From an uncultured Acidobacteriota bacterium (GTDB lineage: Bacteria; Acidobacteriota; UBA6911): a DNA stretch of 64,000 nucleotides. The stretch covers positions 64,001-128,000 of the forward strand of contig CAWJKZ010000011.1 in NCBI GenBank assembly GCA_963843575.1, given 5' to 3'. The translations under genes were made by a program, and so were the position numbers. The notes beneath the pieces were generated by a model. It saw only the letters and a program-made list of their open reading frames with translations, did not search any database and had not been told where the DNA came from. Each line of letters starts with the position of its first letter. Positions within the stretch are counted from its first letter, which is position 1. Shown in pieces: positions 30,707-41,017 of this stretch.

Positions 30707-33700
30707 CTATTGGATCGCCCCGGGGGGAACGGCGGACAGGAAGTTCATTCCCGAGTCCCCGAACAGCTGTTGTGCAATAAGGGGCTGGGTGGAGCGAAGC
30801 GTGATGAACCCCCTCATCTGGCCGGTAGAAGCCGGCACCAACTGTGTCAGCAGTTTCGAGATCCGCGAGTTCGCGCCCAGCTGCAGCGTCGCCTGACCCG
30901 TCTTTGCGCCTGTTTCCGCATAGACCTCCAGGGTGACGGTGGCAGCGGCCTGATTGGGATTGAAGAGGGCGAGGCCGGTGAAGTAGCCGTCGGCATTTGC
31001 GACGTGGTGAAAGACCGCCTGTTTGACCCTGCGGGTCTGAAGCGGAAAACTGGCGGCGAAGTTCATGCTGCGCGGATCGCCGAAAAGGACGTCGCCGAGG
31101 ACCCCCGGCCCGTCCGAGCTCACCGCGAGCGAACCGATCACGGCTGCGGCCGGGTTCAGCGCGAGAGCCTGGACTGCGTCCTGCTCGACGGATTGTCCCG
31201 CGCTCAGGCGCAGTTTTGCCGCCGGTGCCAGTGGGGTGCCGTCGTCGGAGGTCCCCTGAAGCGAAATCGTGCGCGGACTGTCGGACACATTGGTCAACTT
31301 GATGTGCGTGAAGTAATCGGCGGTGTTTGCCAGCTGGGCAGAGTAGAAGGCTGAGGCACCCCACTCGGAAACCGCGTTCAGCCCCAGAACGGTCTTCACC
31401 CCGGGGAACTCGATCAACTCGAACCCGACGGCCCCGTCGCCCGAAGTGACCTGCACGTCGACGTGAGCGCTCGACACCGAGATCCCCTGTCCGAAGAGAT
31501 CGGAAATCGACCGATAAAGAAATCCGCTCGCGGGTATCGACTCGGTGCGGGTGGAGGCAAGCACCTGGCCGGGGTCAGGTCCGAGAAGATTGAGGGACAA
31601 CGTCACCGGCTGACTGGTCGGATTGGCGATGCTGATGTGGGTGACCGCGTCCTGTCCGTGAAATGCCTTGGGACCCTCGAAGACCCGCGTGAACCTGAAA
31701 TGTTTCGCCGCCTGGGTCTGGGCGACGGAGCCGTCGAGTTGTGCCGTGCTGCCGAACTGGAAGAAGCAGCCGATCTCCGTGCTGTCAGCGGTCATCCGGA
31801 TCCACCCCTGTGCGGGAGAAGCCCCTGTGCCGAAGATTTCCTCACCCACTTTTGCCAGCTGGGCGTGGGATTGGAGCGTGAAGCCGGAGGGATTCCTGGG
31901 CAGGGCGAGCGGCTGGCCGTCGGTGCCGAAGGCCGTGAACTGGATGTTGGCGCTGCTGCCTGAGTAGTTCGTGACGGCCAGTCCCGTGTAGGTCGACGGG
32001 CCGGTCTGGTAGAAGGGCACCAGGAACGATTGGGTGACATCCAGCGCGATTGTTCCGAGGTTGGAGTCGAGCGCACCGTCGGAGGCGGCGAAGGTAAACG
32101 AATCTGCGCCCGCGTAGCCGCCGAGGGAATAGTAGGTCGCCGTCGTGCCGTTGATCCCGACGGTGCCGTGGGCCGGTTGCGTGACGACACGCAGTTGAAG
32201 GGGGTTGCCGCCGGGACTGGACGCTTTCAGGGGAAAGGTCGCGGGCGTCCCGTTGCTCACGGCCACCGTGTCGTCGCTCACCGCCGGGGCCGGGTTCGGG
32301 TTGGCTCGTTCGCTTCCCGGGCCGTTGTGGCACGTGTAGCAGCCGATCTGGGAGCCGCGCCAGAACTGCTTCGCGCCGAATTTTGTCGATACGGTCCGGT
32401 TCCCCAAAGACCGGGACAGGACGGTGCCGCCGTAGTCGCGGCCGTGGCACCTTTGGCAGGCCGTGCTCCCTCCCCGCTCGACGGCTTCTTCGTGGCTGTT
32501 GGCCCAGGCCTGGCCGATGGGATGCATGCCGTGCGGCCCGCCATTGACTGTGTTCGGCTGCACGTTGTGACAGGTGGGGCATTCGGAGATGGTCCCGACG
32601 TGGTTCTGGAGTTGCAGGGCCTGGATGTTGTCGTTCCGGTGCGAGCTGGGATACTCGGCATGCGTGGAATGGTGACACGCAGAACACTGCAGGCCGCCGT
32701 GCCCGCTGGAAAACCGGTAGAGCGAGGTGCCCGCCGCCGGCGTATTCGGGTTGGTCGCGAAGGTGGTGTCCGTGGGGACGCGGGGGAGGCCGGACGCGCC
32801 GAACGCCGACGTGAACCGGATCTGTCCGCTGTTGTTCAATGCCGTCCCGGTGTGGCAGTTCTGGCAGTTCGGCTCGTCGAGCCAGCCCTGCCGTCCGGAG
32901 GATCCAACCCTGTTCATCGTCCCGTGGCAGTTCTGGCACTGGATCTCGAACGAACCGTCCGCAGCCACGGCCGTCCCCATCGCGCCGCGAAGGCAACGAG
33001 TCTCGCCCCCGGGGTGACACCGGTAGCAGGCCGATCGGTTTGCGCTGGCGTCAAGGGTCTGGCCATTGGTGGGATCGAGCACGTGGGCGTGAAAGGCGTG
33101 CATCGCCCGGGTGAGCGGCAGTATCGTGCCGATTCCCGTTCCCGGAAGCGCGTTGGAGGAGTGGCAGCGGGCGCACAGGACGGCCTTGTTTCGGTCCACG
33201 GCAGTCGGATAGAGGCCGCTTGAATCGTAACCGGCCGCATCCAGGGCGGCGCGGAAATCCGCGGACCCGCCGTTTTTTTCGTCGTGCAGCCGGAGGATGT
33301 TGAGCCGGTAATCCCGTTCCGGATCGGCGTCGTAAATCCAGCCGTCGAGTGGCTGGCCGGCAGCCGCAGAGCCCGAGGCATGGCACGCCCGGCAGTCCAT
33401 CTCGTCGGAAACCGGCAGCACGATGTCCGTCGTCGCCAGGATGTTCCCTCCGGCGGCGCGAGCCACGAGGTGCATCATCGGGTACGGGTTCTTTTGCCCG
33501 GCGTCGTCGTAGGGTGTAATCGGAATTCCCTCCGCGACAAAGGCGTTCACGCTCGCGTCGAATCTCATCGGCTGGGGCTGGTTCGCGGCCCCGGGCATCC
33601 GGCTGCCCGCCAGGCCCGTGTCGACGGGGAGTGTGGCCCCGAACAGGTTGAAAAGCTGCAGCCAGAATGTGGTCTTGTTCGCCGACGTCGAGTTTATCGA

Positions 33701-33970
33701 TCCGGTGGGGTCTGCAAGCGCCTCGTACGTGACCGTCACTCCCGAAGGGATCCTGACCAACCGGCCGGAGGCGTCCATCAGGTGTGCCTGGACGGTGTTG
33801 TAGGGCGGCAGTATCGAAAAGACGGTGTAGTCGGAATCCATGCAGTGCATCCCCAGGTTGTTCCAACCGACCAGGGTCCATCCGCCCGCGCCCGCGCCTC
33901 CAAGATAGAGGGAGTGGCTGAAAAGTGACAACGTGAGGACAAGGGCCGCACTGAGAGTCTTGTGTCTCAT
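30707..33970 (-). CDS. Secreted nine-heme cytochrome c with an Ig-like domain and a four-repeat C-terminal module
   Basis: Signal peptide; WNNLGMHC; nine CxxCH (CRACH, CARCH, CYRCH, CQNCH x2, CSACH, CPTCH, CQRCH, CYTCH); PAHGTV...GADSFTFAASDG Big_9-like domain. Confidence 0.9.
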   Translation of the reverse strand: MRHKTLSAALVLTLSLFSHSLYLGGAGAGGWTLVGWNNLGMHCMDSDYTVFSILPPYNTVQAHLMDASGRLVRIPSGVTVTYEALADPTGSINSTSANKTTFWLQLFNLFGATLPVDTGLAGSRMPGAANQPQPMRFDASVNAFVAEGIPITPYDDAGQKNPYPMMHLVARAAGGNILATTDIVLPVSDEMDCRACHASGSAAAGQPLDGWIYDADPERDYRLNILRLHDEKNGGSADFRAALDAAGYDSSGLYPTAVDRNKAVLCARCHSSNALPGTGIGTILPLTRAMHAFHAHVLDPTNGQTLDASANRSACYRCHPGGETRCLRGAMGTAVAADGSFEIQCQNCHGTMNRVGSSGRQGWLDEPNCQNCHTGTALNNSGQIRFTSAFGASGLPRVPTDTTFATNPNTPAAGTSLYRFSSGHGGLQCSACHHSTHAEYPSSHRNDNIQALQLQNHVGTISECPTCHNVQPNTVNGGPHGMHPIGQAWANSHEEAVERGGSTACQRCHGRDYGGTVLSRSLGNRTVSTKFGAKQFWRGSQIGCYTCHNGPGSERANPNPAPAVSDDTVAVSNGTPATFPLKASSPGGNPLQLRVVTQPAHGTVGINGTTATYYSLGGYAGADSFTFAASDGALDSNLGTIALDVTQSFLVPFYQTGPSTYTGLAVTNYSGSSANIQFTAFGTDGQPLALPRNPSGFTLQSHAQLAKVGEEIFGTGASPAQGWIRMTADSTEIGCFFQFGSTAQLDGSVAQTQAAKHFRFTRVFEGPKAFHGQDAVTHISIANPTSQPVTLSLNLLGPDPGQVLASTRTESIPASGFLYRSISDLFGQGISVSSAHVDVQVTSGDGAVGFELIEFPGVKTVLGLNAVSEWGASAFYSAQLANTADYFTHIKLTNVSDSPRTISLQGTSDDGTPLAPAAKLRLSAGQSVEQDAVQALALNPAAAVIGSLAVSSDGPGVLGDVLFGDPRSMNFAASFPLQTRRVKQAVFHHVANADGYFTGLALFNPNQAAATVTLEVYAETGAKTGQATLQLGANSRISKLLTQLVPASTGQMRGFITLRSTQPLIAQQLFGDSGMNFLSAVPPGAIQ

Positions 33971-34302: not shown

Positions 34303-35640
34303 TCAGACCGAGCGGCGGCCCCGATGCGCGCGCCAGTACACCGGGACGCCGGTCAGCACCAGCGCAAGCCCCAGGAGCGAGCTCCGCGGCGATTCCACCA
34401 GCGTGTTGATCACGAACATCGCCGAGACGACGACGAACACGAGCGCCGTCCAGGGATAGCCAGGCAACCGGTATGGACGCGGCCAGTCGGGGTGCCTGAC
34501 CCGCAACACGATCACGGAGGCCACCGCCATCGCGAAGAGGATCCACCCCGCGAACATGGCCATCGTGATCAGGTGCTCGTAGCCGCCGGTCAGGGTCAGA
34601 ACCGCCGCCCACAGGCTCATGATCACGATGGCATGCGCCGGCGTCTGGTAGCGCGGGTGAATCTCGCTGGCCCAGTGGAAGAAGGGGTTGTCGCGCGCCA
34701 GCGCAAAGAAGATGCGCGGCCCGGCAAGCACGTTCGCGGCGATGGCCCCGAAGGTCGAGCAGAGGATCGCGAGCGTGATCAGGGTGCCCCCGGCCGGTCC
34801 GACCATGGCTACCATGGCGTCGGTGGCGACCCGGGTAGATCCCGCGATGGCCGCCTGCCCGAGCACGTAGATGTAAGCCAGGTTGGCGCTGACGTAGACG
34901 CCGATGACGATGAAGACGCCAAGCAGGATGCCGAGCGGGATGTTGCGCTGGGGGTTCCGGATCTCTCCGGCGGTGAAACCGACAAAGTGCCAGCCGTCGT
35001 AGGCAAACAGGGTCGAGATCATCGCGACCCCGACCGCCGCGGCCAGCCCCGTCCGGTAAGCCTCCGGCCACAACGGGAGGAAATTCCGGGCCGACGCTCC
35101 GTCCGGGTGCATGAATAAGGCGAGCCCGACCAGGGCGGCGATGCCCGCGATCTTGAGAAACGCGAACAGATTCTGCACCCGCGCGCCCCACACGGTCCCG
35201 CGGCAGTTGACGGCCGCAAGCACCAGGATCAGCACTATCCCCATCCCCTTTTCCTGCCACGGCGCCAGGGGGAGGAAATACTTCAGGTACATCAGGAACG
35301 CCGCCGTCAACGCGGCGATCGGCGCGGCAATCACCACCAGGAGGTTGGTCCAGCCGTAAAGAAAAGCCCAGAACGGCCCGTACGCCTCCCGGATGTAGAC
35401 ATACAGCCCGCCGGAATGGGGCAGCATCGCCCCCAGTTCGGCGAGCGTCAGGGCGCCGCACAGCACCAGCAACCCGGTGAACAGCCAGATCGCGATGACG
35501 AGCCCGGGCTCGGCAATCCGTTGGGCGATCAGGCTGGGTACGACGAAGATCCCGGAACCGATGACGGCGCCCACCAGCAGGAGCGCGGCATCCGTCAGGC
35601 CAAGCTTGCGAGGCAGTTCGGTCGTTACCGGCATGTTCAT
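34303..35640 (-). CDS. APC family amino acid permease
   Basis: VIGSGIF, AELGAMLPHSGGLYVY, FAYDGW, GEIRNPQRNIP, RPYRLPGYP; ~12 TM. Confidence 0.92.
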   Translation of the reverse strand: MNMPVTTELPRKLGLTDAALLLVGAVIGSGIFVVPSLIAQRIAEPGLVIAIWLFTGLLVLCGALTLAELGAMLPHSGGLYVYIREAYGPFWAFLYGWTNLLVVIAAPIAALTAAFLMYLKYFLPLAPWQEKGMGIVLILVLAAVNCRGTVWGARVQNLFAFLKIAGIAALVGLALFMHPDGASARNFLPLWPEAYRTGLAAAVGVAMISTLFAYDGWHFVGFTAGEIRNPQRNIPLGILLGVFIVIGVYVSANLAYIYVLGQAAIAGSTRVATDAMVAMVGPAGGTLITLAILCSTFGAIAANVLAGPRIFFALARDNPFFHWASEIHPRYQTPAHAIVIMSLWAAVLTLTGGYEHLITMAMFAGWILFAMAVASVIVLRVRHPDWPRPYRLPGYPWTALVFVVVSAMFVINTLVESPRSSLLGLALVLTGVPVYWRAHRGRRSV

Positions 35641-35782
35641 GGCCGCTCATCATAGCCCACCCGAAGCTCCCGCGAGAACCTAATGAATCGCCCAAACCGG
35701 CTGGGGGCGCTCTTTTTGCTTTGCCTGGACGGGCTCTTTCGCTTTAATGGCACCATACGGGTCGAACTCCGGAGGCAGGACG

Positions 35783-36784
35783 ATGAAGAAGCTCATCAAC
35801 GATCCCCGCGACTTCGTGGCCGAAATGCTCGACGGCCTGCTCAAGGCGCACCCCGATCAGCTGGGCTTCGCGGCGGGAGATCACCACTGCATCGTCCGGG
35901 CGGATGCGCCCGTCGACGGCAAGGTGGCGCTCGCAACCGGCGGCGGGTCCGGACACCTGCCGGTTTTTCTCGGGTACGTGGGGAAAGGCCTGCTGGACGG
36001 CTGCGCCGTCGGGGACGTTTTTGCCTCCCCCAATGCGGAGCAGATGCTCGCAGTCACTCGCCGCATCCACGGGGGGAAGGGCGTCTTGTACCTGTACGGG
36101 AACTACGGGGGTGACGTCATGAATTTCGACATGGCGGCGGAGATGGCCGCCATGGACGACATCGAGGTCCGCACCGTCCTGGTCAAGGACGATGTCGCTT
36201 CGGCGCCGGCCCTGGAAGCGGACCGGCGCCGGGGCGTGGCCGGCATGGTCTTCGCCTTCAAGGTGGCGGGCGCGGAAGCCGACCGGGGCGGTTCCCTGGA
36301 CGACGTGGAGCGGGTGGCCCGCAAGGCGCTCGCCCACATCCGCACCATCGGGGTGGCGCTTTCCCCGTGCACGGTGCCGGCCGCCGGGCGTCCGACCTTC
36401 ACCATCGGCGAGAACGAGATGGAGATCGGCATGGGTATCCACGGCGAGCCCGGGGCGCGCCGCGAGGAACTCAAGAGCGCCGACCAGATCGCCGAGCGCA
36501 TGACGGAGGCGATCCTGGCCGATATGCCCGTCGGACCCTCGGATCGGGTCGCGGTGATGCTCAACGGGCTCGGGGCCACCCCGCCCGAGGAACTCTACAT
36601 CCTCTACCGCCGGGTGCACGACCTCCTCACAAAACGGGGCGCGCTTGTCCATCGCGCCTACGTCGGCGAGTACGCGACGAGCATGGAGATGGCGGGGGCG
36701 TCGCTGACCGTCTTCAAGCTGGACGACGAACTCGTTGCGCTGCTCGACCGCCCGGCGCGCTCCCCGTTTTTCGTGCAGACATAG
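35783..36784 (+). CDS. dhaK: Dihydroxyacetone kinase subunit K family
   Basis: MKKLINDP, GGGSGHLP, NYGGDVMNF, DDVAS, GMGIHGEPG. Confidence 0.9.
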   Translation: MKKLINDPRDFVAEMLDGLLKAHPDQLGFAAGDHHCIVRADAPVDGKVALATGGGSGHLPVFLGYVGKGLLDGCAVGDVFASPNAEQMLAVTRRIHGGKGVLYLYGNYGGDVMNFDMAAEMAAMDDIEVRTVLVKDDVASAPALEADRRRGVAGMVFAFKVAGAEADRGGSLDDVERVARKALAHIRTIGVALSPCTVPAAGRPTFTIGENEMEIGMGIHGEPGARREELKSADQIAERMTEAILADMPVGPSDRVAVMLNGLGATPPEELYILYRRVHDLLTKRGALVHRAYVGEYATSMEMAGASLTVFKLDDELVALLDRPARSPFFVQT

Positions 36785-36791
36785 AGACCGC

Positions 36792-37436
36792 ATGGCAGAC
36801 GGAACTTTCAACGGCGAGCAGGTGCGCCAAGCGGTTGTGCGGGTCTCGGAGCGCCTGGGCGAACTCGGGGATCTGCTCAACCGGCTCGACGCGGCGGTCG
36901 GCGACGGCGATCTGGGGATCACCGCGGTCAAGGGCGGGGCGGCTCTCCGCGAGTACGCCGCGGCGCAGCCTCCGGTTTCCGATCTCGGAGCCTTCTTGAG
37001 CGGGGCGGGCATGGCTTTCAACCGGGCGGCGTCGAGCACCTTCGGAGCCCTGGCCGCCACGGCGCTCATGCGGGCCGGCAGGGAACTCAAGGGGCTCGAC
37101 GCACTCGATGCCGCATCCCTTGCACGGGCCCTGACCGCCGCCGATGCCGGCGTCCAGGAGCGAGGCAAGGCCCGCCCGGGCGACAAGACCCTGGTCGACG
37201 CCCTGCACCCCGCCGCCGAGGCGTTCGCCGCCGCCATTGCCTCGGGCCACGATGTCAGAACGGCAGCCACGTCGATGCTGGAGGCCGCCCGGGCCGGCCG
37301 CGACGCCATCGTCCCGCAACAGAGCCGTATCGGCCGCGCATCCTGGGTCGGCGAGCGCACCCGCAACCAGCCCGACCCCGGCGCCGTCCTGATCGTCCAC
37401 CTCCTCGAAGCAATAACAGGGGACGGACCCGGGTAA
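36792..37436 (+). CDS. dhaL: Dihydroxyacetone kinase subunit L (Dak2) family
   Basis: LDAAVGDGDLG, RGKARPGDKTLVDAL, GRASWVGER, DPGA. Confidence 0.9.
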   Translation: MADGTFNGEQVRQAVVRVSERLGELGDLLNRLDAAVGDGDLGITAVKGGAALREYAAAQPPVSDLGAFLSGAGMAFNRAASSTFGALAATALMRAGRELKGLDALDAASLARALTAADAGVQERGKARPGDKTLVDALHPAAEAFAAAIASGHDVRTAATSMLEAARAGRDAIVPQQSRIGRASWVGERTRNQPDPGAVLIVHLLEAITGDGPG

Positions 37437-37730
37437 CGCTATTTGTTATAAATGGTTATGGCAGTTTTCGACCACAAAATGGCCCTTATTTCGTGTTTTT
37501 GACGCCTTTTTCTTGAAATAGTGCATGCGGCGGCAGGCAGTCGTTGCGTCGCTCGCGGTGAACCTCTAGATTACTTTCTGTTACGCCGAACGCCGCACAA
37601 AGGAACTTGGAGATTCTGCGAGTGCTTTGAGCCTTGGTGGCGAGCTTTAGACTGACCTCCAGGGCTCAAAGTATTCACAGAACCTCGAAGAGCCCTGAAG
37701 AACAACGTGCGAGGTGTTGGGGGAGATCGT

Positions 37731-38594
37731 ATGCCGGATATGAAGAAGCGGATGGCCGAGAAGAAGCCCCTGGTCGGGGTGGGTGCCCGCGACGCGCTCG
37801 AGGCGCGATTAATCGAGCGGGCGGGATTTGATTTTGTCTGGTCGAGTGGTTTTGCGATTTCCGCGGCCTACGGCGTGCCCGACGCGAGCCTGATCACGAT
37901 GAGTCAGCTGGTCGAGTCCGCCCGCGCCATGGCCGAGGTGATCGACATCCCGATCCTGGCCGATTGCGACACCGGCTTTGGCAACGCCATAAACGTCATC
38001 TACGCGGTCCGGAAATTCGAGGATGCGGGCGTTGCGGCCATCTGCATGGAGGACAAGAAGTTCCCCAAGGACACCAGCTTGCTGCCGGGGGGCAGGCAGG
38101 AACTGGTCTCCGTAGAGGAGTTCGCCGGCAAGATCGCGGCGGCGGTGGATACGCGCAGGAGCCGCGATCTCGTGGTCGTCGCCCGCACCGAGGCGCTCAT
38201 CGCCGGCTGGGGGCAGGAGGAGGCGCTCGAGCGTGCGCGTCGCTACGAGGAGGCCGGGGCGGACTGCATCCTGGTTCATTCCAAGTCGAAGACCCCGGAT
38301 GAAGTTCTCGAATTCGTCTCCAGGTGGGACGGGAAAGTGCCGGTGGTGCTCATCCCCACGAACTATCCCAGCCTTACCGAGTCGGAGGTGTGCCGGCTGG
38401 GGAAGGTGGGGATGGTGATTTACGCGAACCAGATGCTTCGCGCCGCCATAACCGCCCAGGAGGCTCTGCTCGCCGAAATCAGGAAGACCGGCGGCATCCA
38501 CACGGTCAACGCCTCCATCGTGCCGGTCGCGCGCGTGTTCGAACTGCAAAACGTCGCCGGCATGAAAGAGAACGAGAAGAAATACCTGCGGTGA
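37731..38594 (+). CDS. palA: Phosphonopyruvate hydrolase (PEP mutase/isocitrate lyase superfamily)
   Basis: WSSGFAISA, ADCDTGFGN, loop EDKKFPKDTS (hydrolase-type DTS, not the PEP-mutase NS), GRQELV, ARTEALIAG, HSKSKTPDE. Confidence 0.75.
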   Translation: MPDMKKRMAEKKPLVGVGARDALEARLIERAGFDFVWSSGFAISAAYGVPDASLITMSQLVESARAMAEVIDIPILADCDTGFGNAINVIYAVRKFEDAGVAAICMEDKKFPKDTSLLPGGRQELVSVEEFAGKIAAAVDTRRSRDLVVVARTEALIAGWGQEEALERARRYEEAGADCILVHSKSKTPDEVLEFVSRWDGKVPVVLIPTNYPSLTESEVCRLGKVGMVIYANQMLRAAITAQEALLAEIRKTGGIHTVNASIVPVARVFELQNVAGMKENEKKYLR

Positions 38595-38645
38595 TTCGGG
38601 CGGCGGAACCGATGTGCCAGTTTTTGTGAGCCAGGAGTTTGAACG

Positions 38646-39530
38646 ATGCCGGTCCGAGTGGGTTTCGTCGGTTGCGGTGAGGTCGCCTCGATCTTTTCCG
38701 CGGCCATGCTCGAGCGCGGCGCGGATGTTGCCGCGTACGATGTCGTCCGGGAGAAGGCCGCGGGGGCCGGGCTGGCTTTCAAGCCGTTGCCCGAGCTGGT
38801 CGAGTGGTCGGACTACCTGCTGTCGACCGTCACAACCTCGTCGGCCGCGGCCGTCGCCGCAGCCTGCACGCCTAATCTGAAGGTGGGGCAGTTCTATGTC
38901 GACCTCAACTCGACCTCGCCTTCGCTCAAAATCCGCCTGAGTGAGGTCGTCCGGCCGAGCGGGGCGCGGTTCGTGGAGGGCGCCATCCTGGGAGCGGTCG
39001 GGGTCACGCGCGCGGGCACCCCCATTCTGCTCGGTGGGACCGCGGCTGAGGAAGCGGCTGCGGCACTCGCCGCGCTCGGACTGCGCGTTTCCGCCTATAG
39101 CGCGGAGATCGGCAAGGCGTCGACGTTCAAGATGCTGCGCAGCATCTTCTCCAAGGGACTGGAGGCCCTGATCCTCGAATTGCTCATCGCCGGCCGCCGG
39201 GCGGGGATCGAAGCGGACCTGTGGAGGGATGTCTCGGAGTTCATGGCGCGCAACCCTTTTGAGCGCGTCGCCGATAACTGGCTGCAGACGCACGCCGTCG
39301 CCTTCGAGCGGCGCTACCACGAAATGGTGCAGGTGCGGGAGACCATGGGCGAGATCGGGCTGGAACCGATCATGACCCGGGCGACGGAGGCGTTCTTCGC
39401 GCGTTCGTGCACGCTCGGCCTGACCGATGCCTTCCCTTCGAAGCCGTCCTCCATGGACCAGGTGGTCGCCTATCTGGAGCGGCGCCTCGGTCCCGAGCCG
39501 CCGAAGAGCCGGGAAGGGCAGGCCGATTGA
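38646..39530 (+). CDS. NAD(P)-dependent oxidoreductase, 6PGD/beta-hydroxyacid dehydrogenase family (DUF1932-like C-terminus)
   Basis: GFVGCGEVA Rossmann motif, VDLNSTSP, ASTFKMLRS, RRYHEM. Confidence 0.8.
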   Translation: MPVRVGFVGCGEVASIFSAAMLERGADVAAYDVVREKAAGAGLAFKPLPELVEWSDYLLSTVTTSSAAAVAAACTPNLKVGQFYVDLNSTSPSLKIRLSEVVRPSGARFVEGAILGAVGVTRAGTPILLGGTAAEEAAAALAALGLRVSAYSAEIGKASTFKMLRSIFSKGLEALILELLIAGRRAGIEADLWRDVSEFMARNPFERVADNWLQTHAVAFERRYHEMVQVRETMGEIGLEPIMTRATEAFFARSCTLGLTDAFPSKPSSMDQVVAYLERRLGPEPPKSREGQAD

Positions 39531-40879
39531 TGCTCCCGCTTTTCGAGAGGCTTAAACCGGCGCCCGCCGCCGCACCGCTCACCGATGCCCGGGAAATCGA
39601 CGACACCTACCGGCGCTGGCGTTCCAGGACCCTCTGGGGCTGCTTTTTCGGCTACACGGTATTCTATTTCTGCAGGCGCAACATTCCGCTTGCCCTCCCG
39701 AAGATGGCTGCCGAGATGGGATTGAGCAAAGCGCGCCTCGGCATGATCGAATCGGCCGGCCACATCGCCTACGGAACCGGCAAGTTTGCCAACGGGGTGT
39801 TAGCCGACCGGACCAATCCCCGATACTTCATGGCGCTGGGCCTGTTTCTTACGGCGCTGACCAACATCCTGTTCGGGTTGAACTCCTCGCTGCTGGTCCT
39901 CACACTGGTCTGGGGCCTGAACGGCTGGTTTCAAAGCATGGGATTTCCGCCGGGCGCGCGGCTGCTGAGCCACTGGTTTTCCCCCGCCGAGCACGGCTGG
40001 ATCTGGGCCATCTACGGCTGTTCGCACCAGGTCGGAACCGCGCTCATCAGCGTCGCGGCCGGCTATCTGGTCGGGTCCGGGTGGCGACTGACATTCCACG
40101 TCCCGGCCGTTGCGGCGCTGCTCGGCTCGGTTTATCTTTATCGCCGGCTGCGCGACATCCCGGCGTCGATGGGACTGCCGCCGGTGGAGCTCTACCGCGG
40201 GGACTTCGTCGACCGCAAGAGCGTCGAGGCGCTCGAGCAGCCTCTCACGGCAAGGGAAACCCTCCTCGGCTACGTCCTGAACGACCCCCACATCTGGTTT
40301 GTCGCCCTCGGCAACTTCTTTCTGTACATCGCGCGCTATGGCGTCAACACCTGGCTCCCCATGTTTCTCCAGGAGGACCGGGGCATGTCGATGGCGACTG
40401 CGGGCTGGATGTCGGCCGTTTTCGAGGCCGGCGGGGTCCTCGGGATGTTGAGCGCCGGGTGGGTCTCCGACAGGTTCTTCGGTGCGCGACGCGGTCCCGT
40501 CATGGGCATCTTCATGGCCGGGCTGTCCCTGGCCATGCTGGGGTTCTGGCGCGCGGACTCGGTCGCAGCGTATGTGCTGGCGCTTGCCGGGAGCGGGTTC
40601 CTCGTGTATGGGCCCCTGATGCTGGTCAGCGTGGCCGCCGCCGGCTTTGCCGGCAAGAAAGCCGCCGCCAGCGCGGCCGGCTTGTGCGGCTTCTGGGGGT
40701 ACATGGGTGCGACCGTTTCGGGCGCGGGCGTGGGGAAGCTCGTCGACGTGGCCGGGTGGAACGCAGGCTTTGCCTTCCTCATCGGCTCCTCGGTGCTGAG
40801 CTCGTTCTTCTTCGCGCTGACCTGGAACGTGAAGCCGCGCGCGATGCAGGCGTCCGCCGGCAAAGCCGCCGGCGCGTGA
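39530..40879 (+). CDS. MFS organophosphate:phosphate antiporter (GlpT/UhpC/PgtP family)
   Basis: TGATG coupling; GYTVFYFCRRN, YGTGKF, LNGWFQSMGFPP, HWFS, AGWVSDRFF, FLVYGP. Confidence 0.88.
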   Translation: MLPLFERLKPAPAAAPLTDAREIDDTYRRWRSRTLWGCFFGYTVFYFCRRNIPLALPKMAAEMGLSKARLGMIESAGHIAYGTGKFANGVLADRTNPRYFMALGLFLTALTNILFGLNSSLLVLTLVWGLNGWFQSMGFPPGARLLSHWFSPAEHGWIWAIYGCSHQVGTALISVAAGYLVGSGWRLTFHVPAVAALLGSVYLYRRLRDIPASMGLPPVELYRGDFVDRKSVEALEQPLTARETLLGYVLNDPHIWFVALGNFFLYIARYGVNTWLPMFLQEDRGMSMATAGWMSAVFEAGGVLGMLSAGWVSDRFFGARRGPVMGIFMAGLSLAMLGFWRADSVAAYVLALAGSGFLVYGPLMLVSVAAAGFAGKKAAASAAGLCGFWGYMGATVSGAGVGKLVDVAGWNAGFAFLIGSSVLSSFFFALTWNVKPRAMQASAGKAAGA

Positions 40880-40904: not shown

Positions 40905-41017
40905 GTGGGTCCGGGCGGTCCGGGCTTCAGCCCGGACGCTGTTTGCGGTCGCCATAACGCGCGCGTCGTCACATAGATCAGATCAAAAGACGTCCGGGCT
41001 GAAGCCCGGACCCACTT
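40905..41017. repeat. REP family B REPIN-like unit
   Basis: gtgggtccgggc(ggtccgggc)ttcagcccggac-spacer-gtccgggctgaagcccggacccactt. Confidence 0.9.

Follow-up and report, generated by a model that had tools for sequence, protein, structure and literature searches.

Background

Only a small number of activated substrates are known to undergo hydrolytic cleavage of the carbon-phosphorus (C-P) bond, and the locus described here raises the question of which imported compound could be led into such a reaction by a dehydrogenase rather than by the aminotransferase of the known pal (phosphonoalanine) gene cluster. The three genes concerned, g1, g2 and g3, lie in a window of 64,000 nucleotides (the whole stretch of DNA that was analysed), and the original prediction assigned to them the import, oxidation and hydrolysis of either 3-phosphonolactate or 2,3-dihydroxypropylphosphonate. 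We consider the chance somewhat better than even that g1, g2 and g3 form a single operon for the breakdown of a C3 hydroxy-phosphonate, the likeliest substrate being 3-phosphonolactate (2-hydroxy-3-phosphonopropanoate). No dehydrogenase-fed route into phosphonopyruvate hydrolase is described in the literature that we searched.

Organization of the locus

The three genes lie on the plus strand. The first, g1 (37731-38594, 287 aa), has its ATG 5 nt after GGGGGAG; g2 (38646-39530, 294 aa) follows after a gap of 51 nt with AGGAG 8 nt upstream; and g3 (39530-40879, 449 aa) is coupled to g2 by a TGATG, in which the g2 stop codon TGA (39528-39530) overlaps the g3 ATG (39530-39532). The open reading frames and their translations thus agree with the predicted three-gene operon and the TGATG coupling of its last two genes. 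The genes for DhaK and DhaL, overlooked in the original prediction, are located directly upstream on the same strand (35747-37436), and FtsX/ABC genes are the downstream neighbours. No regulator linked to the operon was found in the window.

Between dhaL and g1 lies an intergenic leader or promoter region (37437-37730, plus strand), in which a strong hairpin at 37606-37700 had also been overlooked. Its arms of 35 nt (37606-37640 and 37656-37690) pair imperfectly, an alternative pairing joins 37657-37667 with 37690-37700, and the predicted RNA fold has an energy of -60.4 kcal/mol (z = -5.45; none of 200 shuffled sequences is as stable). The hairpin is unique in the genome (the single blastn match is the hairpin itself), and the leader is not conserved among the corresponding regions of 5 relatives. 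A search of Rfam assigned it to no family and returned sub-threshold miRNA-hairpin matches only, and no sigma-70-like promoter was found in the leader. On the other side of the operon, two palindromic GC-rich hairpins of the form GTCCGGGC-loop-GCCCGGAC occupy positions 40905-41015. This element is a dispersed intergenic repeat with 559 blastn-short HSPs across the assembly; at this site it has a terminator-like match, and it probably acts as the operon's 3' boundary or terminator.

The PEP-mutase-fold enzyme g1

The product of g1 matches Pfam PEP_mutase (PF13714) with 192.5 bits. Its residues 105-117 read CMEDKKFPKDTSL and include the loop EDKKFPKDTS, in which Thr115 aligns (phmmer) with the Thr of the solved Variovorax phosphonopyruvate hydrolase 2dua (EDKTFPKDTSL) and with the Asn of the PEP mutases 5unc and 1m1b, so that the hydrolase-type loop claimed in the original prediction is borne out. 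The Variovorax enzyme is also the best solved relative of g1 (E 1.4e-95), with PEP mutases next. Residues W37, S39, G40, D51, D78, D80, E107, K113, S116, R152 and H183 align with active-site residues of the mussel PEP mutase, and the last eight of these are aligned with both 2dua and 1m1b; we take the Asp/Asp/Asp/Glu set to be the metal site and the Lys, Ser, Arg and His to be those of a mutase-type active site. Lyase and decarboxylase members of the superfamily score far lower with g1 in phmmer (~100-112 bits, against 323).

The NCBIfam model for phosphonopyruvate hydrolase, TIGR02321, gives g1 342.1 bits (cut-off 374.4) and the model for PEP mutase, TIGR02320, gives 278.2 bits (cut-off 319.55), both scores being below the respective cut-offs. 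An identification of g1 as a PEP mutase was rejected by motif and score, i.e., Thr replaces Asn in EDKx5NS and the TIGR02320 cut-off is missed. According to a review (PMC3266647), a single active-site substitution probably separates phosphonopyruvate hydrolase from PEP mutase. Judging from its sequence, g1 is probably a phosphonopyruvate hydrolase-type, C-P-bond-cleaving enzyme. In a FastTree phylogeny of 179 rows it falls in a separate clade with Asn-type proteins, and the best tree of a careful IQ-TREE analysis (84 rows) likewise places it with Asn-type relatives, outside the clade of the characterised Variovorax enzyme. All Thr-type rows are united in 2% of the bootstrap trees, compared with 96% in the quick tree, and the AU test does not reject a single Thr-type clade (p 0.11).

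The rest of the genome was represented by an assembly of 6.68 Mb that is 88% complete. It contains no PEP mutase, and searches for Ppd (phosphonopyruvate decarboxylase), PhnJ, PhnX and PhnA found nothing above cut-off. Its one other PEP-mutase-family member has the loop EDQVFPKRCGH, presumably lyase-type. As had been stated earlier, the locus is free of an aminotransferase: no PalB-like match above 100 bits occurs in the window, and the best PalB match in the assembly (34% identical) is located away from the operon.

The dehydrogenase g2 and the carrier g3

The product of g2 belongs to the DUF1932 branch of the beta-hydroxyacid dehydrogenase superfamily, with Pfam scores of 37.3 bits for the helical C-terminal domain DUF1932 and 37.2 bits for the N-terminal Rossmann domain NAD_binding_2, both above cut-offs. 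Its best NCBIfam matches, TIGR01505 and NF043037, are weak (E 1e-5 to 3e-4) and far below cut-offs. The best solved relatives are 4ezb, 3qsg and 1i36, all three with function unassigned, and Foldseek also places these three at the top for the AlphaFold model of g2 (pLDDT 94.6), followed by imine reductases; the literature and other sources searched hold no assigned function for any DUF1932 member. Thirteen residues are invariant in 76 relatives (G9, G11, D32, D86, N88, K95, E111, K162, R165, K170, R222, R223 and R253). Among these, K162 is carried near the start of the long interdomain helix (157-186) of the model, and we infer that it may be the catalytic Lys. An Asp after strand 2 of the Rossmann fold indicates NAD rather than NADP, and because Asp32 is invariant at this place the cofactor of g2 is predicted to be NAD.

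Phosphonate contexts are not exclusive in the g2 family. Among 45 unique relatives, 12 adjoin HpcH/HpaI aldolases, with no phosphonate genes near these 12 loci, and 8 adjoin neither partner. All conserved residues are common to the aldolase-linked and the mutase-family-linked dehydrogenases, and a single column, 199 (F/L), separates the two kinds consistently, in a comparison that left out 7 divergent rows.

The carrier g3 matches Pfam MFS_1 (190 bits) and E. coli GlpT (1pw4, E 4.6e-90); a visual estimate over 420 residues puts its identity to the latter at ~45%. In the alignment g3 retains the binding-site Arg, Lys, His and Arg of GlpT, which we take to have substrate-site roles. By its MFS fold and these site residues, g3 is assigned by sequence comparison to the organophosphate:Pi antiporter family (GlpT/UhpT/PgtP). 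Unlike the named members, however, it scores under every NCBIfam equivalog cut-off (GlpT 371.7, PgtP subfamily 350.4 and UhpC 349.9 bits), and its closest relatives among the matches listed are a small group travelling with g1 and g2: the best 4 of at least 80 relatives listed (51-74% identity) all adjoin homologues of both genes. A second GlpT homologue elsewhere in the genome is 38% identical to g3. We propose that g3 may act as a phosphonate/Pi exchanger.

Gene linkage in other genomes

In the first 80 loci a g2 homologue was present in 14 of the 26 D[TN]S-clade loci and in none of the 54 others. When all fetched loci are considered, it is found within 4 kb of the g1 relative in 25 of 138 unique D[TN]S-type loci from many phyla, mostly 15-140 bp downstream; these scans detect loci by the peptide or DNA words that they share, and their sampling is biased. 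No dehydrogenase lies within 4 kb in 106 of 120 DTS-type loci, many of which have cut flanks. All three genes, the carrier sharing 50% identity or more with g3, are found together in at least 7 unique loci from four phyla (the window, L001, L003, L084, L171/L244, L298 and L223), labelled Bryobacterales, Gemmatimonadota, Bacteroidota (three) and Pirellulales; a cultured organism, Adhaeribacter aerolatus NBRC 106133, is among the carriers of the trio. Conservation of the neighbourhood had been set beforehand as a check, and both the pair and the trio recur across phyla. In the host lineage the module is a rare accessory unit, probably acquired horizontally.

The slot held by the dehydrogenase can be occupied by other enzymes. 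In locus L012 a PalB-type aspartate aminotransferase stands in exactly the place that the dehydrogenase takes in the closest relatives (L009, L011 and L227), and four NC10-type loci have a short-chain dehydrogenase (SDR) there. The importer next to the g1 relatives also varies (MFS, two ABC types, TctABC); among the genes of related loci are those for ABC binding proteins (PhnS2-like and SBP_bac_1), for TctC/TctA and for LysR regulators, and no biosynthetic or tailoring genes were found among the neighbours in the related loci examined. Many partners of g2 homologues keep the mutase-type Asn, including those in many anaerobe-type lineages (FPKDNS). Some Firmicutes have a genuine PEP mutase as the partner, next to TctABC importers, and one Firmicutes partner scores above the PEP mutase cut-off (396.6 versus 319.55 bits).

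Comparison with known systems

The closest known counterpart is PalA/PalB of Variovorax sp. Pal2 and Burkholderia cepacia Pal6 (palR-palABCDE), which has the same type of C-P enzyme (PEP mutase fold, Thr in EDKx5TS), a feeder enzyme converting a 2-substituted 3-phosphonopropanoate into phosphonopyruvate, and clustered uptake genes. The differences are that the feeder is a DUF1932 dehydrogenase in the window and a class I aminotransferase in pal, that uptake would be by a GlpT-family MFS antiporter rather than an ABC system encoded by the pal transporter genes, and that the window has no LysR regulator. An identification as a pal gene cluster was rejected because adjacent PalB, pal transporter genes and LysR are all missing. 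The enzyme g1 itself differs from PalA in its TIGR02321 score (342 bits, versus 547.5 for the Polaromonas PalA orthologue) and in its position in the best tree, among Asn-type relatives and apart from the PalA clade of Proteobacteria. Of the palA genes known, 99% are proteobacterial (PMC10574752), whereas units of the type found in the window occur in loci labelled Acidobacteriota-type, Gemmatimonadota, Bacteroidota, Planctomycetota and Chloroflexota.

The logic of dehydrogenating a hydroxy-phosphonate to a beta-oxo phosphonate that a hydrolase then cleaves is shared with 2-hydroxyethylphosphonate catabolism, where PhpC-type or PbfG dehydrogenases are reported to feed the phosphonate hydrolases PhnX/PhnA (Protein Sci 2026, PMC13576164). 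That substrate is C2 rather than C3, the alcohol dehydrogenases are Zn-dependent and unrelated to g2, and the hydrolase is PhnX, not a PEP-mutase-fold enzyme. The phosphonopyruvate/phosphonolactate redox couple itself is shared with VlpB and malate-dehydrogenase-like reductases of valinophos and related clusters (PMC8942020), although these act in the opposite direction, in biosynthesis beside PEP mutase, have a 2-Hacid_dh_C or Ldh fold instead of NAD_binding_2 plus DUF1932, and have had their phosphonopyruvate reductase activity only inferred (PMC8942020). GarL/GarR (HpcH-family aldolase and tartronate-semialdehyde reductase) and LtnD resemble the pair g1-g2 in that an enzyme of the beta-hydroxyacid dehydrogenase superfamily is encoded beside a pyruvate-releasing Mg2+ enzyme, and some g2 relatives adjoin HpcH aldolases as well; g2, however, scores far under the GarR and LtnD cut-offs and has the DUF1932 C-terminal domain.

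Proposed pathway and alternative explanations

In the proposed pathway, g3 would bring the phosphonate in and internal phosphate out, g2 with NAD+ would form phosphonopyruvate by oxidising phosphonolactate at its C2 hydroxyl, and g1, with a Mg2+/Co2+ site, would hydrolyse phosphonopyruvate to pyruvate and Pi, as its 2dua-like sequence and active site suggest. Hydrolysis by g1 would pull the unfavourable oxidation forward and provide Pi for the antiport. The dehydrogenase is placed before g1 because a hydrolase yielding pyruvate and Pi leaves no aldehyde to reduce. The core of the original prediction receives comparative support from the gene linkage, the slot displacement, the importer and LysR neighbours and the lack of PEP mutase and decarboxylase, tempered by the wider contexts of the g2 family. 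The evidence supports a catabolic module in which phosphonopyruvate is formed from a 3-phosphonopropanoate substituted at C2, phosphonolactate being the likeliest. The caveat that this dehydrogenase family oxidises beta- and not alpha-hydroxyls appears weaker than stated, as the C2 hydroxyl of phosphonolactate would be beta to the phosphonate. L-threonate dehydrogenase LtnD oxidises a C2 hydroxyl.

As to the two substrates suggested earlier, phosphonolactate fits better than 2,3-dihydroxypropylphosphonate because there is a single redox enzyme and because TctC/TctABC uptake in related loci is of carboxylate type. Import of another hydroxy-phosphonate, such as the latter compound or an ester or peptide of it, with extra enzymes encoded elsewhere, would suit a GlpT-family carrier of glycerol-3-phosphate-like molecules, the CocE/NonD-type S15 hydrolases that adjoin a g3 relative (L246) and a g2 relative (L213), and the DhaK and DhaL genes just upstream in the window; we find it quite unlikely, since the route from the diol to phosphonopyruvate takes three oxidations and DhaKL is absent from all other fetched loci. 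Phosphonoalanine, an abundant natural phosphonate (PMC10574752), would be the substrate if g2 were an NAD+-dependent deaminating dehydrogenase that releases ammonium and replaces PalB, and the PalB-type enzyme in the g2 slot of L012 and the imine reductases as best superposition of the g2 model (TM 0.74-0.79) point this way. The invariant Lys162, however, stands at the catalytic-Lys position of the beta-hydroxyacid dehydrogenases, where imine reductases have Asp or Tyr, and GlpT-type or TctC-type carriers fit anionic acids better than a zwitterionic amino acid. To our knowledge the g2 family includes no amino-acid dehydrogenase, and we rate phosphonoalanine as equally improbable.

It is also unlikely, if slightly less so, that the module handles no phosphonate at all and that g2 oxidises an ordinary 2-hydroxy acid (malate-, 2,4-dihydroxybutanoate- or sulfolactate-like), the 2-oxo acid then being cleaved or decarboxylated to pyruvate by g1 as by other superfamily members. 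The 12 aldolase-paired dehydrogenases with the same residues and the score of g1 under the hydrolase cut-off would be explained in this way, against which stand the whole phosphonyl-binding loop and metal ligands of phosphonopyruvate hydrolase and PEP mutase in g1, its low scores with lyase and decarboxylase members, the family of g3 and the PhnS2-like binding proteins of sister loci. Least probable is a biosynthetic pair, in which g1 is a PEP mutase, g2 pulls the equilibrium by reducing phosphonopyruvate to phosphonolactate, and g3 exports the product. Such a reduction is a recognised biosynthetic branch (VlpB; PMC8942020), and the Asn-type partners of g2 homologues, with the one above the PEP mutase cut-off, would be in keeping with it; the window's g1, however, has Thr, related loci combine binding-protein-dependent importers and LysR regulators with a lack of tailoring genes, and Asp32 suggests NAD+. 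GlpT-family carriers, moreover, are Pi-linked uptake systems.

Conclusions

We conclude that the trio probably allows a soil-type bacterium to import a hydroxy-phosphonate and convert it to pyruvate and phosphate. The module is proposed as a functional counterpart of the PalB-PalA route, with a dehydrogenase for the aminotransferase and an MFS antiporter for the ABC system. If this is true, hydrolytic C-P cleavage would gain a fourth entry route, one that starts from a hydroxy acid where PalB starts from an amino acid, and a DUF1932 protein would have its first function. A possible but rather doubtful extension is that the DUF1932 dehydrogenase with a PEP-mutase-family enzyme is an old and widespread phosphonolactate-catabolic core, of which PalA-PalB would be one proteobacterial offshoot. 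Asn-type partners would then run "backwards" as catabolic PEP mutases, converting phosphonopyruvate to PEP and keeping the phosphorus of the phosphonate in the form of a high-energy phosphoryl group, and the Thr-type hydrolase of the window would be derived once or twice from the Asn-type state. Because the EDKx5NS motif, by which biosynthetic PEP mutases are annotated (PMC8942020), also marks proteins from uptake and catabolic contexts, counts of phosphonate producers may be inflated. In the literature searched, phosphonolactate is recorded from the spent medium of one producer only (PMC8942020). Adhaeribacter aerolatus NBRC 106133, as a cultured carrier of the trio, makes the pathway directly testable, and if the pathway is as proposed, phosphonolactate would be a nutrient scavenged by soil and sediment bacteria of several phyla.

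Results

Layout of the locus

The window carries three consecutive forward-strand genes, namely g1 (37731-38594, +; 287 aa ORF), which encodes a phosphonopyruvate hydrolase-like enzyme of the PEP mutase fold, g2 (38646-39530, +; 294 aa ORF), a dehydrogenase, and g3 (39530-40879, +; 449 aa ORF), a carrier. The g2 start lies 51 nt after g1 with AGGAG ahead of it, and the start of g3 overlaps the g2 stop as TGATG. ORFs, translations and alignments confirm every detail of the original prediction concerning a three-gene operon, its TGATG coupling and the loop EDKKFPKDTS. The G+C content of the window is about 65%, and composition is unbroken around the trio. The dihydroxyacetone-kinase subunit genes DhaK and DhaL (35747-37436, +; Dak1 415 bits, Dak2 134 bits) lie directly 5' on the same strand, 294 nt separating dhaL from g1; they were ruled out as part of the unit, as no other fetched locus contains them. 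A 540-aa ORF overlying them (35744-37366, -) has no Pfam match and is probably a shadow ORF. The same region holds a gene for a 1087-aa protein with MtrC/MtrF-like multihaem cytochrome, cytochrome c7, Big_9 and cadherin-like domains (30707-33970, -), which adjoins an APC-family amino-acid permease gene (34303-35640, -).

A long, imperfect leader hairpin with 35-nt arms and an alternative downstream pairing (37606-37700; z = -5.45) lies 31-41 nt ahead of the g1 start. It occurs once in the genome, is not conserved in the leaders of five relatives, and at permissive Rfam thresholds gave only sub-threshold miRNA-hairpin matches. Lacking both an Rfam family and conservation, it is not claimed as a riboswitch; its possible roles are those of a leader or attenuator structure or of an operator. 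A search of the g1 leader for sigma-70-like promoters gave none. Downstream of g3 lies a copy (40905-41015) of an intergenic, REP/MITE-like repeat about 100 nt long, composed of two palindromic GC-rich hairpins and dispersed over many sites of the source assembly (559 short-blast HSPs). The search for expression returned no matching RNA dataset and 17 matching DNA datasets, each with at most 0.13 of the sequence words.

Identity and phylogeny of g1

The g1 product belongs to the PEP_mutase fold (Pfam, 192.5 bits) and scores below cut-off against both relevant NCBIfam models, phosphonopyruvate hydrolase (342.1 bits, cut-off 374.4) and PEP mutase (278.2 bits, cut-off 319.55). Its top solved relative is the Variovorax phosphonopyruvate hydrolase 2dua (E 1.4e-95), and the PEP mutases 5unc and 1m1b rank after it. 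Alignments with these three structures show that g1 has the same metal ligands and shares the mutase active-site residues Lys, Ser, Arg and His, while the mutase Asn is replaced by Thr115 in the loop EDKKFPKDTS, with Thr likewise in 2dua. Arg188 of the Variovorax enzyme was rejected as a second hydrolase marker, because Lys stands there in the Polaromonas orthologue (490 bits to 2dua) and in g1 itself. A review (PMC3266647) attributes the divergence of hydrolase and mutase, with probability rather than certainty, to one active-site substitution.

Relatives with an FPKDTS loop (Thr-type) and an FPKDNS loop (Asn-type), together D[TN]S-type, form a supported clade in all trees, and differ from ordinary PEP mutases by the derived states Thr59Ser, Ser89Ala and Gly228Lys and two one-residue insertions (Variovorax numbering). 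Both FastTree (179 rows) and a careful IQ-TREE search (84 rows), the latter of better likelihood than a quick search, place g1 in a group that comprises 13 Thr-type and 9-11 Asn-type proteins, almost all with a linked dehydrogenase. This group is separate from the proteobacterial PalA (phosphonopyruvate hydrolase) clade, to which the solved enzyme is tied through the Polaromonas orthologue. Two independent origins of Thr are favoured by these two trees and contradicted by the quick tree, which unites the Thr-type rows; all Thr-type rows are united in only 2% of bootstrap trees, and a single Thr-type clade is not rejected by the AU test (p 0.11).

Gene linkage and distribution

Of the best 80 of 364 confirmed g1 relatives, 26, the closest loci, share the loop FPKD(T/N)S and constitute a clade. 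A g2 homologue is found in 14 of these 26 and in none of the remaining 54, a set composed of ordinary PEP mutases whose neighbours are of the phosphonopyruvate decarboxylase (Ppd) type and of a group with different residues at the loop positions. Scanning DNA for the pattern of the Thr-type loop gave at least 119 loci, mainly proteobacterial PalA-like genes, and, among the matches listed, further g1 + g2 and g1 + g2 + g3 loci. Pooling and de-duplication left 138 unique D[TN]S-type homologues among the matches listed, many with cut flanks; g2 lies within 4 kb of g1 in 25 of them (14/120 Thr-type, 11/18 Asn-type), mostly 15-140 bp downstream, and a PalB-like aminotransferase (PalB being phosphonoalanine aminotransferase) is present in 17. 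Among the same matches an SDR directly follows the g1 homologue in four Asn-type loci and lies 3.2 kb off in one Thr-type locus. The conservation of the trio, proposed originally as a check, is borne out by its recurrence in at least seven unique loci when the g3-type carrier is required to share 50% identity or more; by record title these are the window, Bryobacterales, Gemmatimonadota, Chitinophagales and Pirellulales MAGs (the last with an Asn-type g1), Flavihumibacter and Adhaeribacter aerolatus NBRC 106133.

Next to the pair in sister loci of the Asn-type are binding-protein-dependent ABC systems, whose binding proteins include a PhnS2-like one (173 bits, under cut-off) and one of the SBP_bac_1 type, as well as TctC receptors and LysR regulators. 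Locus L012 has a PalB-type aspartate aminotransferase at the exact slot occupied by the dehydrogenase in its nearest relatives, and in the NC10/Methylomirabilota loci L018, L020, L021 and L022 a FabG-like SDR replaces the DUF1932 dehydrogenase about 200-240 bp after an Asn-type g1 relative. No importer was seen near the g1 relative in these four loci, and the role of their g1-SDR pair could be catabolic or biosynthetic. Judged by gene content, the neighbours mark uptake and catabolism, with interchangeable feeder enzymes predicted to make phosphonopyruvate.

In the source assembly (6.68 Mb, 88% complete) we found no PEP mutase, no close PalB, and no Ppd, PhnJ, PhnX or PhnA over cut-off. The sole other PEP-mutase-family gene of the genome (G000:C26:155837-156559; 35% identity to g1) has the loop EDQVFPKRCGH, which we take to be lyase-type, resembling methylisocitrate lyase or carboxyPEP mutase. 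The assembly also holds one further GlpT homologue (38% identity). None of 50 other genomes of the order has a match to g1 with an E-value of 1e-60 or lower, and a phylum sample of 400 genomes gave four matches of 44-51% identity; the unit is consequently a rare accessory in the lineage.

The carrier and the dehydrogenase

The g3 product is a GlpT-family carrier (1pw4, E 4.6e-90) that retains the binding-site Arg/Lys/His/Arg and falls under every named NCBIfam equivalog cut-off. Among its best 80 relatives only the four closest (51-74% identity) adjoin g1 + g2; an Aquiflexum relative of 51% identity is not beside that pair, and the others, Bdellovibrionota and Chlamydiae carriers, have at most 48% identity. 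Genes for CocE/NonD-type S15 hydrolases (Peptidase_S15 + PepX_C) adjoin a g3 relative in an Aquiflexum MAG (L246:5321-7189) and a g2 relative in a locus with oligopeptide ABC genes (L213:697-1872); the substrates of these hydrolases may be ester or peptide conjugates.

The g2 product consists of NAD_binding_2 and DUF1932 domains (Pfam). Its sole clear solved relatives by phmmer against PDB are three structural-genomics proteins labelled unknown function, and Foldseek with the predicted structure (pLDDT 94.6) ranks the same three entries first, followed by imine reductases. Across PDB, NCBIfam, ESM Atlas and source names, the search for a function returned only 'unknown function', 'DUF1932', '3-hydroxyisobutyrate dehydrogenase-like' and imine reductases. 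Common to 76 relatives are Asp32 after strand 2, Lys162 heading a long helix, and a Lys/Arg/His set; Asp after strand 2 usually indicates NAD rather than NADP.

Among 32 fetched loci of g2 relatives, 11 have a PEP-mutase-family neighbour and 12 an HpcH/HpaI aldolase immediately 3', the latter being ordinary HpaI/GarL/YfaU-like enzymes. This second arrangement is a compact module of Proteobacteria MAGs (L218, L219, L221, L224-L226, L228, L229, L232, L234-L236), often with GntR/FCD and TctC genes, whose dehydrogenases share 47-55% identity with g2. The aldolase-linked proteins nest among the mutase-family-linked ones in the g2 tree, share all conserved residues with them and show a consistent difference at a single column; a scan of 10 ORFs neighbouring the aldolase-linked genes gave no phosphonate genes. 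We infer the same chemistry in both contexts: a g2-type enzyme would oxidise a 2-hydroxy acid and yield the 2-oxo acid, and the adjacent Mg2+ enzyme would cleave the C3-X bond to give pyruvate, X being P for g1 and C for the aldolase. On this two-context reading a phosphonate-specific g2 is a candidate only.

Discussion

The original prediction of hydroxy-phosphonate import, oxidation and hydrolysis is supported in part by comparative genomics. We lean towards a route in which g3 would import phosphonolactate by Pi antiport, g2 would oxidise it at C2 with NAD+, and g1 would hydrolyse the resulting phosphonopyruvate to pyruvate and Pi, the last step being suggested by how closely g1 resembles an enzyme that is both solved and characterised. 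The weak point of the phosphonolactate reading is g2. The aldolase-linked relatives bear on a non-phosphonate 2-hydroxy-acid route, which we consider unlikely given the similarity of g1 to 2dua. Oxidative deamination of phosphonoalanine by g2, to which the imine reductases in the Foldseek ranking and the aminotransferase of L012 are relevant, is a little more doubtful still; another hydroxy-phosphonate needing further enzymes is just as doubtful. Biosynthesis plus export seems highly improbable beside the uptake systems of the sister loci.

The closest known system is the pal route with PalA, PalB, transporters and LysR (PMC10574752, PMC3266647); closest in logic is hydroxyethylphosphonate catabolism, where dehydrogenases feed PhnX (2026, PMC13576164). 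Reduction of phosphonopyruvate to phosphonolactate appears in PMC8942020 only as a biosynthetic, inferred step, with folds unrelated to g2. The literature searched, with few subscription journals and no supplements, gave no description of phosphonolactate catabolism, DUF1932 function or a catabolic PEP mutase.

One subgroup of the PEP mutase family, distinct and well supported, occurs in Acidobacteriota/Vicinamibacteria- and Nitrospira-labelled records (L036, L037, L057, L062, L063, L065-L067, L070, L072, L075, L076, L078, L079), with Asn replacing the Lys at loop position 112 and Cys replacing Asn/Thr at position 118. Separately, g2-family dehydrogenases stand beside Asn-type relatives and, in Firmicutes, beside a protein passing the PEP mutase cut-off (396.6 bits; loci of both kinds L007-L013, L016, L214, L223, L227; L217, L222, L231, L233, L239), and importers (ABC with binding proteins, TctABC, MFS) and LysR regulators adjoin these pairs. 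The mutase-type relatives that stand beside importers are candidate catabolic PEP mutases. Because the EDKx5NS motif also occurs in uptake contexts, it is no proof of a biosynthetic role; the cultured carrier of the trio, Adhaeribacter aerolatus NBRC 106133, makes the proposed pathway testable.
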